Below the pieces are notes generated by a model. That model made no database searches. It saw only the letters and a program-made list of their open reading frames with translations, and was not told the DNA's origin. 64,000 nt of DNA from Candidatus Sediminicultor quintus (GTDB taxonomy: Bacteria > Atribacterota > Phoenicimicrobiia > Phoenicimicrobiales > Phoenicimicrobiaceae): positions 3,606-67,605 of the forward strand of contig MEYH01000022.1 of assembly GCA_001773955.1 (NCBI GenBank). Reading direction: 5' to 3'. Position numbers and translations under genes: made by a program. Within the stretch, counting starts at the first letter, position 1. The number at the start of each line of letters is the position of its first letter. Shown one piece after another: positions 19,351 through 25,034 of this stretch.

Positions 19351-20811
19351 TTATTTATCTCGGGTTTGTTCTAAAATCCAATCGCCTATTATTTTTAAGG
19401 CGATGGGTGAAATTGTTTCTTCGATCTTTGCATATTCAGCAGGCACCCCGATTTGAGCGGTTTGAAAAAGATGATTAAGGCCTGGTAATTCTTTAATGGT
19501 AAAGTTTTTATTACCTCCGGCAACGAGAGCATCTTTGATAGCACTTAGATTCTCTTTGGGGGGAACTTGTAAATCTTTCTCCCCATTTATAGCCAGTACC
19601 GGACACTTTACCTTACTCAAAGTTGGTTTAGGATCATAGGTTAGGAAAAACTTAAGCCAGGGAGATAATAAGCTCTGAAGTTGAACTTTAAGGAACACTT
19701 CCGGATCACCTATTTGTTCTTTTTTCTCATCACTCATTTTTTCCCAATCTTCCATAAACATCTGACGAAGTTTTTCTTCAATAGTTTTCTCGTCCTTTCC
19801 CTCCTTAATGAGAGAAAATATCTTTTCATTAAACTGACGATTCTTAATAATATCTTCTTCGCTGACCCCCATTGCCCTGGAAATCAAAGCACCTTGTAAA
19901 TATAGAATTTCTTCTCCGGTTAACCCTGTCCCGGCCATTAATACTATAAAAGCCACATCTGAAGATTTTGCAGCAACCATTGGGGCAATAATACCACCTT
20001 CGCTATGTCCGATAAGGCCAATCTTCTTTGGATTTATCTCTTTTCTTGCTTTTAGGTATTCTATCCCGGCTAACACATCGGAAGCAAAATCTCCACTGGT
20101 AGCCTGAGAAAAGTCCCCGGTTGATTCTCCCACTCCCCGATCATCTACCCTGAGGACAGCAATCCCCTGACGAGTTAAATAATCTGCTAATACCAGAAAG
20201 GGACGATGCCCGGCTATAGCTTCATTACGGTCTTGCGGACCAGAACCGGTAATTAATAATACTGCCGGAAAAGAATCCTGCTCAGATGGCAAAGTCAGAG
20301 TTCCTGTGAGTGTAATTTCTGCTTCTTTATTTTCATATACTACTTCTTCTTCAATGTAAGGATAAGGTTTTTTTGGCTCCTGAGGTCTGAGCATTTCCAC
20401 TGCTTTATCAACCCGCTTCACTGTCAGCGGTAGAGTCTGTCCGGATTGTTTCCAATGTCCTTCTATAGTTAAAAAATCACTACTTATCTTTCCTTCAAAA
20501 ATACCTCCCACAGAATTTATTTCCAGATACAAAGTGTTATCTTTAACCATAACCTTTTCCACCGCTATACCAGTTACTCCCTGATCAGGGCTATCTAAAG
20601 TTGCAGTTAGAGATCCATCTGGATTCTTAGAAATCTTACACACAATCCGAAGTTCTACTCCTGGTACTTTCAACTTACCCTCCCAGATACCCTCAATGCT
20701 TATTTCAGAGGTATCTTGCTGTTGAGCAAATACTACCATGCTAATACTACTTACCATTATTAAAGCAAGACAAATTAAACCACTAAATATAATCTTATAA
20801 GTTATTTTCAT
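19351..20811 (-). CDS. Secreted alpha/beta hydrolase (dienelactone hydrolase / S9-like) with an N-terminal accessory domain
   Basis: Signal peptide and a GHSEGG nucleophile elbow. Confidence 0.7.
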   Translation of the reverse strand: MKITYKIIFSGLICLALIMVSSISMVVFAQQQDTSEISIEGIWEGKLKVPGVELRIVCKISKNPDGSLTATLDSPDQGVTGIAVEKVMVKDNTLYLEINSVGGIFEGKISSDFLTIEGHWKQSGQTLPLTVKRVDKAVEMLRPQEPKKPYPYIEEEVVYENKEAEITLTGTLTLPSEQDSFPAVLLITGSGPQDRNEAIAGHRPFLVLADYLTRQGIAVLRVDDRGVGESTGDFSQATSGDFASDVLAGIEYLKARKEINPKKIGLIGHSEGGIIAPMVAAKSSDVAFIVLMAGTGLTGEEILYLQGALISRAMGVSEEDIIKNRQFNEKIFSLIKEGKDEKTIEEKLRQMFMEDWEKMSDEKKEQIGDPEVFLKVQLQSLLSPWLKFFLTYDPKPTLSKVKCPVLAINGEKDLQVPPKENLSAIKDALVAGGNKNFTIKELPGLNHLFQTAQIGVPAEYAKIEETISPIALKIIGDWILEQTRDK

Positions 20812-20917
20812 AATATTTTTCTCCCTTTCCTATATTAAAAAGTGATTTCCCATTCAATGCTCTAATTAAGATTTGCAAAATTAATAGTAAAAATAATTAG
20901 GAAATAGCTATATTCCT

Positions 20918-20960
20918 TTATTCTACAAAAAAAGCAAAAATCCTCTTTTTATATAAAAGT
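20918..20960 (+). promoter_or_regulatory. Conserved upstream module shared by both arsR-headed operons (copy 1), followed by a TTGACA -35 element
   Basis: ttattctacaaaaaaagcaaaaatcctcttttt is almost identical to 23233-23275. Confidence 0.4.
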
Positions 20961-21055
20961 TTTTGCTTTTTTATATTAATCTAATTGACAAGAGAAGATT
21001 TTTAATATACACTATATAAGTAAATATGAATATACTTATTTAAAAGGAAATAGCA

Positions 21056-21370
21056 ATGCCCAATTATGAAATTGAAGAAATTTCCAAAATATTTAAAGCT
21101 TTATCTGATCCAACCAGATTTAAAATATTTCTCTTGTTAAATGATAGAGTATCTTGCGTTAATGCTATAGTTAATTTTTTACAAGTATCCCAGCCAGCGG
21201 TATCCCAGCATCTCAAGATTTTGAGGGAAGCCGGCTTGGTTAAGATAGAAAAAAGAGGTTATTGGGTGCATTACTCATCTAATAAGGAGAAGGTAGAAAA
21301 ATTTTTTGAGGATTTTCCAGCCTTACTAAAATTGAAAGGGGTTGAAAAATATGTGCAAAAAAATAAGTAA
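21056..21370 (+). CDS. arsR: ArsR/SmtB family metalloregulator
   Basis: 104 aa; winged HTH LSDPTRFKIFLLL…VSQPAVSQHLKILREAGLV. Confidence 0.85.
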   Translation: MPNYEIEEISKIFKALSDPTRFKIFLLLNDRVSCVNAIVNFLQVSQPAVSQHLKILREAGLVKIEKRGYWVHYSSNKEKVEKFFEDFPALLKLKGVEKYVQKNK

Positions 21371-21515
21371 AGAAAGATGTGAACATCCGGAAAGACTTAA
21401 GGGTAAACCGGGGAAATGCACTTCTGAACAGATAAAAAATTGTCACGGTGATATTTCCGAAAAAAATCATCCATGCGCATGTGTTTCGGGAAAAAAGTCG
21501 GACAAGTCCATTTAA
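21351..21515 (+). CDS. Small 54-aa Cys/His-rich protein, a putative metal-binding peptide
   Basis: ORF MCKKISKERCEHPERLKGKPGKCTSEQIKNCHGDISEKNHPCACVSGKKSDKSI found by manual translation. It overlaps the arsR stop and is absent from the >=60-aa ORF track. Confidence 0.35.
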   Translation: MCKKISKERCEHPERLKGKPGKCTSEQIKNCHGDISEKNHPCACVSGKKSDKSI

Positions 21516-21560
21516 ATAAATAAAAAATTGCTCAAAGTAATTTGATAAGGGAGAACAAAT

Positions 21561-22040
21561 ATGTATGACTATGTTTTGTATCTATTGGCGGGCATATTTC
21601 TGGTGATTTCATTTAAAAGAGATAAAAAGAAAACTAAAATGGCTTTAAAAAAAGCCTGGAAGTCATTCGAAAATATACTTCCACAATTTTTAACTATTTT
21701 AGCTTTTTCAGGTATGGTTTTAGCCCTGCTAAGTCCTGATGTTATATCCCGCCTTTTAGGCCAGAAAGCTGGTTGGCAGGGCATGATTATTGCCTCAATA
21801 ATTGGGTCAATAACACTGATACCAGCCTTTATAGCTTTTCCTATTGCTGCTATGCTCCTTAAAAATGGAGCTGGTTTCGCGCAGATAGCAGTATTTGTAA
21901 GCACACTGATGATGGTTGGAATAGTCACACTGCCACTGGAAATTAAATGTTTCGGTAAAAAGATTTCCATAATGAGGAACATGTTTGCTTATCTGTTTTC
22001 CTTTATGGTAGCTTTAGTAATAGGGGTGGTGCTAGGATGA
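21561..22040 (+). CDS. Permease subunit 1 of a two-component membrane permease; part of a split permease
   Basis: 159-aa multi-TM protein; its stop overlaps the next start (ATGA coupling). Confidence 0.5.
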   Translation: MYDYVLYLLAGIFLVISFKRDKKKTKMALKKAWKSFENILPQFLTILAFSGMVLALLSPDVISRLLGQKAGWQGMIIASIIGSITLIPAFIAFPIAAMLLKNGAGFAQIAVFVSTLMMVGIVTLPLEIKCFGKKISIMRNMFAYLFSFMVALVIGVVLG

Positions 22041-22573
22041 AAATAATTTTCAAAAGATATTTAGGGTTTATAATTATTTTGGTATTGAATATCATATTGT
22101 TTATTATTGACAGAAAAAATGGGTTAAGTTCAATAACCATTTTCGGATCAATTATTTTTCAAATGGCGAAAATACTACCACCCATATTTGTGCTTTTAGG
22201 ACTTATGGATGTGTGGATTCCCAGGGAAACAATGGAAAAATTTATGGGAGAGAAATCGGGCTTACTCGGAATTCTAATTGCTTTTTTCTTTGGGTCATTT
22301 GCAGCAGGCCCTCTTTATGCTGCTTTCCCCATTGCCATAATTTTAATGAAAAAGGGTGCAAAATTTCTTAATATTCTTATTTTTATAGGTGCTTGGTCAA
22401 CTACCAAAGTTCCCATGTTCCTATTTGAAACAGCCTCCTTGGGATGGAGATTTTCTGTTATAAGGCTTATTATGAGTATATTCGGAGTAATTACTATAGG
22501 CTACGCGATAGAATTATTGATAAGTAAAAAAGAAAAGGAAGACCTATATAATAAGGTAAGATTAATGCAGTGA
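22037..22573 (+). CDS. Permease subunit 2
   Basis: 178-aa multi-TM protein translationally coupled to subunit 1. Confidence 0.5.
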   Translation: MKIIFKRYLGFIIILVLNIILFIIDRKNGLSSITIFGSIIFQMAKILPPIFVLLGLMDVWIPRETMEKFMGEKSGLLGILIAFFFGSFAAGPLYAAFPIAIILMKKGAKFLNILIFIGAWSTTKVPMFLFETASLGWRFSVIRLIMSIFGVITIGYAIELLISKKEKEDLYNKVRLMQ

Positions 22574-22737
22574 TTGATATACAAAAATAAAATAACAGAA
22601 GGCATTAAAGGATTAAAAATAAGAGGGGAATTTTCTTATTTTATTTAAAGAGCAGTTTTTAATTATTTCAACTATTAATAGAGCGACTAATTGAATGGCG
22701 GGATAAAAAACAAGTAAATCTATAGGAGGTAAGGATA

Positions 22738-23043
22738 ATGCAAGCATTTAATCTTAAAACAATGAAGTCACATCCCTATGAGGAGAGGGATAAGAATGTC
22801 TTTTATAAAGCTAAGGAGTTTAAAGCAAGAATTATCGAACTTCCACCCGGTGGAGAGATGCCAACCTGTGAAATGCTTTCTTATGTAATCTTTTATGTTG
22901 TTAAAGGAACAGCAGAAGCAAAAGTTAATCAAGAAAAAATTATCCTTAAAGAAGGACAGTGTCTAATTACTGAACCAGCAATACTATCTATGAAAACACA
23001 AGATGGCGTCAAGATGATGGGTATACAGATAATGAAAACTTAA
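22738..23043 (+). CDS. Cupin domain protein
   Basis: 101 aa of small-barrel composition with a GGAGG RBS. Confidence 0.55.
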   Translation: MQAFNLKTMKSHPYEERDKNVFYKAKEFKARIIELPPGGEMPTCEMLSYVIFYVVKGTAEAKVNQEKIILKEGQCLITEPAILSMKTQDGVKMMGIQIMKT

Positions 23044-23232
23044 ATATCCTATCAAGTTAATTTTATTTTATACTTTTATCTTTCGAACTGTATCTAATTT
23101 TCGAAAAATCTGCTTTTTAATTTTTACCTCAAATCTCAGGTTAAATCAACATTCTCTCCTCTACAGTCAATACAGTTGTCTTTGCTTTCCCCCTCTTTTT
23201 TATAAATAATTTGTTAGCGACTTTATATTTTT

Positions 23233-23275
23233 TTATTCTACAAAATAAGTGAAAATCCTCTTTTATTAAAAAATC
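23233..23275 (+). promoter_or_regulatory. Conserved upstream module (copy 2), followed by TTGACA-N17-TTATAT
   Basis: ttattctacaaaataagtgaaaatcctctttt matches the copy at 20918. Confidence 0.4.
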
Positions 23276-23367
23276 TTTGGTTTTATAAATAATAAATAAA
23301 TAATAAATATTGACAATAATATGATTATATGATTATATTATCATATCTTAATACAAAGGGGGGTGAA

Positions 23368-23700
23368 ATGGAAACAGTTATAAAAATATTTAAAGCCTTA
23401 TCTGATGAAACTCGCCTACGTATTTATTTGCTTCTACTGCAAGGTGAATTATGTGTCTGTGAATTGGTAAATATATTAAATATGGAACAATCAAGAATTT
23501 CGCATAGTATTAGGATTTTAAAAGAAGCAGGTCTTGTTGATAATCGGCGAGAAGGCAAATGGATAATCTATACAGTAAATCCTGAAACAGAAAATAATAG
23601 AATAATTCAGGGTTTTAAGAATGAATTAGAATTACCGGAACAGGATTTGAAATATATTAATAAATGTAGGAAAGAAAAAATAAGAGAAAAGTTTAAATAA
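23368..23700 (+). CDS. arsR: ArsR/SmtB family metalloregulator, paralogous to the one at 21056
   Basis: Start chosen at METVIKIFKALSDETRLRIYLLLL after a G-rich RBS; HTH SRISHSIRILKEAGLV. Confidence 0.85.
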   Translation: METVIKIFKALSDETRLRIYLLLLQGELCVCELVNILNMEQSRISHSIRILKEAGLVDNRREGKWIIYTVNPETENNRIIQGFKNELELPEQDLKYINKCRKEKIREKFK

Positions 23701-23725
23701 AATTAAAATATTATAGGGGTTAAAT

Positions 23726-24778
23726 ATGTTACTAGAAATATTAATTGGCGGACTAATTGCTTTAAAAGAATATGTTGCACTACATGTGTTAACTTGCCTT
23801 ATTCCAGCTTTTCTTTTGGCTGGCGGAATTATTGCTTTTACTTCTCGTGATACCATTCTTAAATATTTAGGTGCGAAAGCAAAAAACATTATTTCTTTCC
23901 CCTTAGCGGCAATCTCTTCAATATTTATTGCAGTATGCTCCTGTACCGTAATTCCAGTTTCAGCCGGAATCTATCGTAAGGGTGGGGCGATTGCCCCTGC
24001 TTTTATTATATTATGGGTGGCCCCTGCTTCCAATCTTTTAGCAGTAATCTATACTGGAAATATAATAGGGTATGACATGGCCATAGCCAGAATTATTACT
24101 GCTTTCGTTACTGCTTTCGTTATGGGAACAGTAATGTATCTATCTTTCCGCAAAGAAGAAGCAGAGAGGATGGTAGAAGGAGAAAAAAAAGGAAATAATG
24201 ATAAAAAAATTATTGCCGGAAAAGATATAATTTTACTTCTCTTAATTCTTTTTAGCTTGCTTTCTCCTAATTACCTTATTACCAAGGGTCCTTACTTGCA
24301 TAAGGTTTATGTCTTTGCCATATCCATCTCTATTACTTTTTTATATGCTTACTTTGCTATTAAAAAAGATAGGATTTCCAATTGGCTTAAAGAGACCTGG
24401 TGGTTTGTAAAATTAATATTTCCTTTGCTTTTAATGGGAGTATTTATTGTAGGAGTTATTGGAAAAATCCTCCCTCAGCAATGGATAGAACATTGGCTGG
24501 GAGGAAATTCTTTGCGTTCCTCTTTTTTTGCCACCCTTATTGGAGCAGTAAGCTATTTTGCTACTATGACTGAAGCACCATTTGTAGATACTTTAATGAA
24601 ATTAGGAATGGGGAAAGGTCCAGCCCTTGCGCTGCTTCTTTCTGGACCAGGAATGAGCCTTCCCAATATGTTAGCCATAATAAAAGTATTTGGCTTTAAA
24701 AAAGCTTCTGTTTATATTGTAACTATGGTTATCCTGGCTACCCTGAGTGGTTGGTTTTGGGGAAATTATATTTTTTAG
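23726..24778 (+). CDS. DUF318 family permease (ArsP-like)
   Basis: 350 aa, multi-TM with a CSCT motif; the classic partner of the downstream small thioredoxin-like gene. Confidence 0.75.
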   Translation: MLLEILIGGLIALKEYVALHVLTCLIPAFLLAGGIIAFTSRDTILKYLGAKAKNIISFPLAAISSIFIAVCSCTVIPVSAGIYRKGGAIAPAFIILWVAPASNLLAVIYTGNIIGYDMAIARIITAFVTAFVMGTVMYLSFRKEEAERMVEGEKKGNNDKKIIAGKDIILLLLILFSLLSPNYLITKGPYLHKVYVFAISISITFLYAYFAIKKDRISNWLKETWWFVKLIFPLLLMGVFIVGVIGKILPQQWIEHWLGGNSLRSSFFATLIGAVSYFATMTEAPFVDTLMKLGMGKGPALALLLSGPGMSLPNMLAIIKVFGFKKASVYIVTMVILATLSGWFWGNYIF

Positions 24779-24791
24779 GAGGTAAATAAAG

Positions 24792-25034
24792 ATGAAAATT
24801 GAAATTTTAGGAACAGGATGCCCTAAATGTAAAAAATTAAGTGAATTAACGCAGAAAGTCATTCAAGAACTTGGTATATCAGCGGAGATTTCAAAAGTAA
24901 CTGACATTAACAAAATTATTGATTATGGGGTTATGGTGACCCCTGCTTTAGTTATTGATGGAAATGTAAAGGTAGCGGGCAAAATACCCAGTAAAAAAGA
25001 AATTACTGAATGGATTGAAGAAAAAAATAAATAA
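24792..25034 (+). CDS. Thioredoxin-family small protein (redox-active disulfide protein 2-like)
   Basis: 80 aa with an N-terminal GTGCPKC CxxC motif. Confidence 0.75.
   Translation: MKIEILGTGCPKCKKLSELTQKVIQELGISAEISKVTDINKIIDYGVMVTPALVIDGNVKVAGKIPSKKEITEWIEEKNK

Follow-up and report, generated by a model that had tools for sequence, protein, structure and literature searches.

Overlapping the 3′ end of an arsR gene in Candidatus Sediminicultor quintus (Atribacterota), within a 64,000-nucleotide (nt) stretch of contig MEYH01000022.1 (hereafter, the window), lies a small open reading frame (ORF) for a Cys/His-rich peptide of 54 amino acids (aa). The peptide is best described as belonging to a large, widespread and uncharacterised family of Cys/His sensory mini-domains of ArsR regulators, which is encoded here by a separate, overlapping gene and falls outside Pfam, NCBIfam and the PDB. 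Comparisons of deduced products indicate homology to the C-terminal domain of a large ArsR subfamily; this relationship, overlooked in a first-pass annotation of the window, is the main functional clue. We give roughly even weight, for and against, to the peptide being a detached ligand-sensing module of ArsR, probably for a metal or metalloid.

The small ORF and its conservation

The ORF extends from an ATG at 21351 to a TAA ending at 21515 on the + strand, and the ORF listing, its translation, its homologues and its codon bias support a free-standing Cys/His mini-domain. The translation, MCKKISKERCEHPERLKGKPGKCTSEQIKNCHGDISEKNHPCACVSGKKSDKSI (54 aa), contains six Cys (positions 2, 10, 23, 31, 42 and 44) and three His (positions 12, 32 and 40), with a CxC formed by C42-A-C44, as the first-pass annotation had it. 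The ORF coordinates confirm the location it gave, between an overlap with arsR (21056-21370) and two permease halves; this overlap spans 20 nt, with the small ORF in the +1 frame. The ATG at 21351 is the likely start, because it lies 9 nt after a Shine-Dalgarno (SD)-like sequence read within the arsR coding sequence (GAAAGGGG, 21334-21341, + strand) and 172 of 310 homologues begin with MC; the TTG at 21342 given in the ORF listing has no comparable SD spacing. Stronger SD sequences (GGGGGTGA, AAGGTGA and GGAGGTGA) occur at the equivalent position inside arsR in loci L001, L012 and L018.

Searching 5.8 billion proteins recovered 21 clusters of close homologues (43-60 aa), among them an identical sequence of NCBI and ENA origin. 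When 1.84 billion representatives were searched with a profile, 278 clusters (50% identity) were obtained at E ≤ 0.001, a wider profile yielded 2,137 clusters at 90% identity, and a scan of one genome per species found 28 loci in named genomes, with homologues spread over about seven phyla. Across 25 ungapped core codons from ten loci, differences at codon positions 1, 2 and 3 amounted to 109, 94 and 298, respectively, and an own ATG with a strong SD inside arsR was retained in every lineage compared. The reading frame, set beforehand as the refuting test, is conserved in orthologous loci. Because of the homologue clusters, the third-position bias and the preserved SD, ATG and frame, these comparisons indicate that the small ORF is a genuine gene under purifying selection. 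This bears out the proposal of a real gene for a small Cys/His-rich protein, which precedes the permease and shares a transcript, and probably coupled translation, with arsR.

The gene had also been described as unannotated, which stands only in the sense that it lacks a characterised product: the identical protein is already called in NCBI- and ENA-derived collections as a hypothetical protein, so that the peptide is uncharacterised rather than universally unannotated. Several IMG records (P0002 clusters) label a peptide of 47-52 aa as [quoted passage not shown] though it has no helix-turn-helix (HTH) domain, presumably an annotation-transfer artefact from fused proteins. Small-ORF cut-offs conceal this gene, and some pipelines misname a 50-aa peptide as a full ArsR regulator. 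An antisense ORF of 63 aa (21279-21470, − strand) covers part of the small ORF and encodes a hydrophobic, low-complexity product; it is probably spurious, since the third-position substitution pattern tracks the + strand frame.

A Cys/His motif shared with ArsR C-terminal tails

Alignment of the homologues defined the family signature C-x12-C-x7-C-H-G-x5-7-H-x-C, a core of approximately 35 residues that is usually accompanied by one upstream Cys. The window peptide fits this pattern (C10, C23, C31-H32-G33, H40 and C42) and scored 65.5 bits (E = 2.5e-19) against the family hidden Markov model; its conserved core from C10 to C42 reads CEHPERLKGKPGKC-TSEQIKN-CHG-DISEKN-HPC (21378-21476, + strand; alignments A1, A2 and A4). 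Among 387 motif instances, a His directly follows the third Cys in 385, the spacing between the first two Cys is 12 in 356, and a further Cys is found no more than 10 residues upstream in 322. Four Cys are invariant and a fifth is frequent, for a conserved count of four to five, and the His at position 12 of the window peptide occurs in only about half of the instances. The CxC, which the first-pass annotation had pointed out, results from a 2-residue insertion peculiar to the window copy and does not hold up as a functional feature.

Stop-to-stop translation revealed three forms of the motif: a free peptide of 39-60 aa, a tandem with two copies in approximately 80-90 aa, and an in-frame C-terminal tail of ArsR (L021, L023, L027 and L042). 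A search with the fused proteins retrieved 119 further best-matching clusters (142-200 aa), all labelled as ArsR regulators, and the motif was present in all 119, once in 103 and twice in 16. In the Atribacterota locus L021, which has the same operon as the window, deletion of one G in the G-run of the SD joins arsR and the small ORF (355-470). These alignments indicate that the small-ORF peptide is homologous to ArsR C-terminal tails.

The L021 deletion lies in a homopolymer of a single Atribacterota metagenome-assembled genome, and an assembly error is possible; in this locus, a NapH-like 4Fe-4S membrane protein is also inserted ahead of the permease pair. In L022 (1-345), all that remains upstream of the free peptide is a stop-interrupted remnant of an ArsR C-terminus (…FIRKFNELSGGERYVQ), which suggests that arsR decayed while the peptide was kept.

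The closest of the 28 genome loci are from Atribacterota. The remaining loci come from Dehalococcoidia and other Chloroflexota, Desulfobacterota, Lentisphaerota, Planctomycetota, Tindallia, a Methanophagales archaeon and Natroniella acetigena, a cultured and experimentally tractable Firmicute with two copies. All host lineages recovered are anaerobic. The copies of the N. acetigena isolate Z-7937 (L036 and L039) are 39-41 aa long, one of them directly before an ABC/ABC-2 exporter and the other approximately 500 nt before an arsR.

Scans of the peptide against Pfam and NCBIfam did not identify any domain, with zero Pfam families at E ≤ 1, and neither database assigned a domain to the motif in the tandem and fused forms. 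In particular, the peptide did not match the profiles for HMA/CopZ (PF00403), the SmtA/BmtA metallothioneins (PF02069) or ArsD (PF06953 and NF033727), an arsenic metallochaperone characterised by Cys12, Cys13 and Cys18 in a thioredoxin-like fold, and the TRASH/YHS profiles (PF04945 and PF08394) matched none of the free, tandem or fused forms, whose Cys spacing differs. A sequence-profile search of the PDB with the peptide returned no matches at E ≤ 10. Two AlphaFold2 models, built without metal from alignments of 58 and 139 rows, reached a predicted local distance difference test (pLDDT) score of 65 and 69, respectively, and consisted of a single helix without strands; a fold search with these models gave no match. 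Likewise, no match was obtained by tblastn against the PLSDB plasmids, a second copy of the motif was looked for in the window and not found, and searches of the literature turned up nothing relevant on the motif strings, on Cys-rich small proteins or C-terminal extensions associated with ArsR, or on "TsoR". In one homologue of 124 aa (P0164), the motif is preceded by a coiled-coil-like linker and by an N-terminal stretch rich in His and Cys (…HDHHGHHRVNHCCC…CGCHHHGH…), an extra hint of metal chemistry.

Coupling to arsR and the partner regulators

An arsR gene is fused to, overlaps or adjoins the motif in 12 of the 28 genome loci, belonging to Atribacterota, Desulfobacterota, Planctomycetota, Lentisphaerota and Firmicutes, and lies approximately 2 kb away in a thirteenth. 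The peptide was also linked to arsR in nearly all the metagenomic loci examined. The coupled loci comprise L001-L006, L011-L020, L034-L037 and L047-L049; in L036, the 246 nt of upstream sequence contain no arsR. Overlaps with arsR are long, from 20 to 52 nt, and the small ORF is read in +1 relative to arsR by Atribacterota-type lineages and in +2 by Planctomycetota. The idea that it always occupies the +1 frame was thus discarded; with two relative frames in use, it is the coupling that is conserved and not any particular frame.

The partner gene in the window (21056-21370, + strand) encodes a 104-aa ArsR/SmtB repressor with a single α3 Cys (SCVNA), as identified by alignment and by matches to the HTH_5 winged-helix profile PF01022 (E = 4e-15, 55.9 bits; cut-off 22) and NF033788 (E = 4.5e-26, 90.5 bits; cut-off 55). 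The SufR model TIGR02702 aligned weakly (E = 0.027) and only with the HTH region of this ArsR, leaving the peptide unmatched, and the nearest named NCBIfam ArsR subfamilies include BigR, below cut-off. The partner ArsRs carry a lone α3 Cys, in xCVNA or xCVGA, where Escherichia coli ArsR has CVC, and the α5 His/Asp/Glu site was absent from them in an alignment with uncurated reference ArsR and SmtB sequences. By this comparison, the partner ArsRs appear to be without a complete canonical sensing site, be it the α3 CVC or the α5 D/H-x-H...H-x-x-E. Loci with the motif fused to ArsR contain no free copy and retain the same ABC-2 exporter or split permease, indicating that the transporter needs no free peptide.

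A candidate σ70 promoter, with ten of 12 consensus positions, precedes the window arsR (20985-21013, + strand; −35 TTGACA at 20985-20990, a 17-nt spacer and −10 TACACT at 21008-21013), and related loci share the TTGACA box at the corresponding position. The −10 box is separated from the ribosome-binding site of arsR by a predicted palindromic operator, ATAAGTAAAT-N4-ATATACTTAT (21016-21039; inverted repeat I5), which ArsR may bind. The same palindrome precedes arsR in nine related loci (L001, L002, L011, L012, L015 and L018-L021), some of them with considerably diverged ArsR proteins. No terminator-like site was found between arsR and the cupin gene described below, through the small ORF and the permeases.

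The close relatives L001, L003, L004 and L019 contain a divergently transcribed gene for ZIP metal uptake between a peptidase gene and arsR. This gene is missing from L015-L017 and from the window, which has in its place (region 20812-21055) an AT-rich perfect hairpin (AAAAAAGCAAAAA / TTTTTGCTTTTTT, 20928-20972). An Rfam scan of 20500-23500 reported only sub-threshold matches, to this AT-rich hairpin.

A run of seven A residues (A7) occurs in the overlap between arsR and the small ORF (21357-21363, + strand), where a +1 slip (AAA to AAA), or the loss of one A from the mRNA, would join ArsR to the peptide. The run is also found in L001, L015 and the distant L012. It was rejected as a conserved frameshift signal of general occurrence, because L011 and L018 do not have it.

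Proposed mechanism and alternative explanations

The lack of canonical sites in the partner ArsRs, together with the retention of transporters in fused loci without a free copy, leads us to propose, as the likeliest reading, that the motif is the sensing module of this ArsR subfamily, acting in cis or in trans. The core of approximately 35 residues would be a Cys/His ligand-binding mini-domain that forms the C-terminal tail of ArsR in many anaerobes. In the window, a frame change would have split it from ArsR, translational coupling being kept through the 20-nt overlap and the internal SD. The ArsR, with no complete sensing site of its own, would bind the ATAAGTAAAT-N4-ATATACTTAT operator and repress the operon of arsR, the small ORF, permeases A and B and, probably, the cupin gene. 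The ligand of the peptide would be thiophilic, with a soft metal or metalloid ion as the best candidate; its binding might be relayed through contact with ArsR, so that repression would be released and the two-subunit ArsP-type permease would export the ligand. Metal binding through the conserved Cys and His is inferred from residue conservation, and physical contact with ArsR, the sign of the regulatory effect and the nature of the ligand are likewise inferred. A more specific version is plausible, if on balance a little doubtful: a peptide of approximately 50 aa, co-translated with the repressor, would be a detachable sensor subunit that forms the ligand site in trans, possibly with the lone α3 Cys, and lineages would have switched repeatedly between one and two chains by single-base indels. 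Slippage on the A7 run could yield both the split and the fused forms from one locus.

Several observations weigh against a sensing role tied to ArsR. In eleven Chloroflexota loci, the peptide gene is surrounded by ComEC, cold-shock and cupin genes and has neither an arsR nor a transporter gene in its vicinity, which implies that the domain can act without ArsR. The Natroniella copy L036, which directly precedes an ABC exporter and lacks an arsR in the upstream sequence available, would suit a link to the transporter as well. Confidence in the AlphaFold models is no more than moderate, and they had no fold match. Moreover, the cargo varies among loci and thus points to no single ligand, and the restriction to anaerobic hosts would also fit an oxygen-labile iron-sulfur (Fe-S) cluster.

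Of the functions suggested in the first-pass annotation (metallochaperone, metallothionein-like protein or sensor), a metal-related sensor fits best. A metallothionein-like protein is contradicted by the fixed-spacing, single-site pattern, by the absence of Cys clusters and of a PF02069 match, and by a conserved count of only four to five Cys, and an obligatory metallochaperone is weakened by the ArsR-fused loci that keep the same transporters without a free copy. Nevertheless, the peptide might be a cytoplasmic metallochaperone or buffer that either sequesters a toxic ion or passes it on to the permease or ABC-2 exporter, and is merely co-expressed with ArsR, without regulatory contact. Its high Cys/His content, its location immediately upstream of transporters in most loci, including L036, and the tandem forms, which look like multi-site binders, would agree with this. 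We consider it unlikely, however, since the motif is fused to a DNA-binding regulator in at least 119 protein clusters and to no transporter subunit among the 150 best representatives, the transporter is kept where no free copy exists, four or five conserved Cys are too few for a metallothionein-type sink, and no HMA, ArsD, YHS/TRASH or metallothionein profile was matched. It also seems improbable that the motif coordinates an Fe-S cluster or serves as a thiol-based redox or persulfide switch, with the ArsR-peptide pair sensing oxygen, oxidants or reactive sulfur or selenium in the manner of SufR, BigR or SqrR. The four invariant Cys and frequent fifth, the exclusively anaerobic hosts and the proximity to BigR among named subfamilies, although below cut-off, are compatible with this reading, as are the DsrE-like sulfur-relay and methyltransferase genes in Planctomycetota and Lentisphaerota operons and the cluster of a divergent Fur-family regulator, catalase and rubrerythrin that adjoins L047. 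Conversely, a pair of near-invariant His beside Cys (CH and HxC) would be expected in a Zn or soft-metal site rather than in a 4Fe-4S site, neighbouring ZIP, CDF, ChrA, Metal_resist/RND and CzcB-like genes indicate metals, and the operons contain no genes for Fe-S assembly or repair.

Two further explanations concern how, or whether, the ORF is expressed. It is very improbable that the peptide is produced mainly as a C-terminal extension of ArsR, through +1 ribosomal or transcriptional slippage on the A7 run (21357-21363). This run lies within the 20-nt overlap, AAA-to-AAA re-pairing would enter the small-ORF frame exactly, the run recurs in L001, L015 and the distant L012, and L021 illustrates that the fused state is one indel away. 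All lineages, however, preserve an own ATG with a strong, correctly spaced SD, L011 and L018 have no A-run, the Planctomycetota overlaps are in the +2 frame, AAA AAA is the preferred coding for Lys-Lys in an AT-rich genome, and no stimulatory element is evident. Lastly, the ORF might be a functionless chance frame, or the decaying remnant of a fused ArsR tail, as it is short, overlaps another gene and belongs to an AT-rich genome with many spurious ORFs of 30-60 aa, and parts of the module can decay, like the arsR of L022. Conservation effectively refutes this reading, given that frame, start codon, SD and all ligand residues are maintained across phyla, substitutions are biased to third positions, and dozens of independent contigs have the peptide among their called genes.

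ArsR/SmtB repressors are a textbook model of bacterial metal sensing, and their sensing sites have been catalogued for decades. The motif described here would represent a sensory module present in thousands of protein clusters from environmentally important and mostly uncultured anaerobes, including Atribacterota, Dehalococcoidia, sulfate reducers, anaerobic Planctomycetota and anaerobic methanotrophic (ANME) archaea. Its free, duplicated and fused states, with transitions of one indel, offer a natural series to ask whether a sensing domain works in trans, and the same series may help to name the substrates of uncharacterised ABC-2 and split ArsP exporters. If true, sensing in trans by the peptide would define a new, widespread class of two-protein metalloregulators and a new metal- or ligand-binding fold.

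Comparison with known systems

In function, the nearest counterparts of the peptide would be the TRASH/YHS modules of archaeal cop operons, ArsR proteins with C-terminal Cys sites and the CopZ-CopY pair, although its sequence and predicted fold place it in none of these groups. A parallel in architecture is found in Sulfolobus, where CopM is reportedly a free small TRASH/YHS protein and CopT/CopR the regulator-fused form. In both cases, a short Cys-based module, predicted to sense or traffic thiophilic metals, either stands alone beside a regulator and an exporter or forms the C-terminal end of the operon's own transcription factor. The resemblance is of architecture only, because there is no sequence relationship (C-x12-C-x7-CH-x5-7-HxC here versus C-x19-22-C-x3-C), the partner is of the ArsR/SmtB type instead of the Lrp/TrmB type, and an ABC-2 exporter or ArsP permease, in place of a P-type ATPase, is the usual cargo.

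Sensing Cys in C-terminal tails are established for ArsR of Acidithiobacillus ferrooxidans (Cys95, Cys96 and Cys102) and for CmtR (Cys102). The fused relatives of the peptide share with these proteins a layout that places the ligands beyond the winged-helix core, on a flexible C-terminal extension of the ArsR-family dimer. Here, in contrast, the tail appears as an autonomous domain of approximately 35 residues with fixed spacing, which can be tandem, free or encoded by a separate overlapping gene; no such autonomy, duplication or separate coding is known for the tails of A. ferrooxidans ArsR and CmtR. SufR, a cyanobacterial ArsR-like HTH protein with a C-terminal Cys4 Fe-S site, likewise combines an ArsR-type winged-helix regulator with a C-terminal sensory region of four Cys, although the Cys spacing differs, the motif described here has conserved His, and SufR governs suf genes and not exporters.

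Small metal-binding partners of repressors are also known. In Enterococcus hirae, the small metallochaperone CopZ delivers Cu(I) to the repressor CopY, so that a metal binder from the same operon controls DNA release by the repressor, much as we propose. CopZ, however, has an HMA ferredoxin fold, of βαββαβ topology and with an MxCxxC loop, whereas the peptide has no PF00403 match and was modelled, with moderate confidence, as one helix without strands; furthermore, CopY is outside the ArsR family, and no series of CopZ-CopY fusions or fissions is known. In the SmtB-SmtA system, an ArsR-family repressor governs a bacterial metallothionein with approximately nine Cys in some 55 aa, thus also placing a small Cys/His-rich protein under an ArsR/SmtB regulator. 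The window peptide differs from SmtA in the absence of a PF02069 match, in its fewer Cys, which are not clustered, and in its homology to the regulator's own tail, which SmtA does not show; in addition, its gene is co-directional with arsR and overlaps it, whereas smtA and smtB are divergent.

Downstream genes and cargo

The small ORF is followed by two genes for half-size ArsP_1-type permease subunits, A (159 aa; 21561-22040, + strand) and B (178 aa; 22037-22573, + strand), which overlap by 4 nt (ATGA). Subunit B exceeded the PF03773 cut-off of 32.3 (E = 2.2e-13, 50.5 bits) and subunit A fell just under it (E = 1.5e-6, 28.0 bits). The halves are homologous to each other (phmmer, about 1e-10) and each spans approximately half of the PF03773 model; against the SO_0444 model, the first half (A) aligned to the C-terminal positions 193-308 and the second (B) to the N-terminal positions 6-132. 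This suggests that 21561-22573 encodes a heterodimeric, permuted two-gene ArsP-type transporter. The split is not that of a broken gene, because the two ORFs are conserved as separate genes in all Atribacterota-type loci.

A small cupin gene (101 aa; 22738-23043, + strand; PF07883 E = 1.1e-5, just under cut-off) is probably the last of the operon. Its product apparently has no usual His-x-His metal motif, with PTCEMLSY at that site. A cupin gene follows the permease pair in L001-L006, L019 and L021, and unrelated small cupins follow the free peptide in the Dehalococcoidia loci L007, L029, L031 and L040. The cupin was discarded as a conserved partner, since it is present only in Atribacterota and some Dehalococcoidia.

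The split ArsP permease and the cupin are an Atribacterota-specific version of the cargo. The cargo with the widest distribution, present at 13 loci that span at least five phyla, is an orthologous DrrA-type ABC ATPase, accompanied in 10 of the 13 by its ABC-2 permease; the same pair also occurs downstream of fused regulators. Other neighbours include ChrA, a DsrE-like protein with an ArsM-like methyltransferase, ZIP, CDF, a CzcB-like adaptor with an outer-membrane factor (OEP), and Metal_resist with an RND pump. The cargo and neighbouring genes are connected with efflux or with metals, which favours the proposed sensing role. A six-gene operon of the Planctomycetota type (L047-L049) comprises arsR, the tandem motif and genes for a DsrE-like protein, an S-adenosylmethionine (SAM) methyltransferase weakly similar to ArsM and DVU_1556, an ABC ATPase and an ABC-2 permease, and adjoins the Fur-family, catalase and rubrerythrin cluster.

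A second, separate ars-like cluster occupies positions 23329-25034 of the window. It consists of an arsR (23329-23700) with the canonical ELCVCEL, a gene for a full-length ArsP_1 permease of 350 aa (PF03773 E = 1.5e-78) and one for an 80-aa thioredoxin-like protein of the MTH895/ArsE family with CPKC, and a strong promoter-like site, TTGACA-18-TATATT, is found at 23310-23339.

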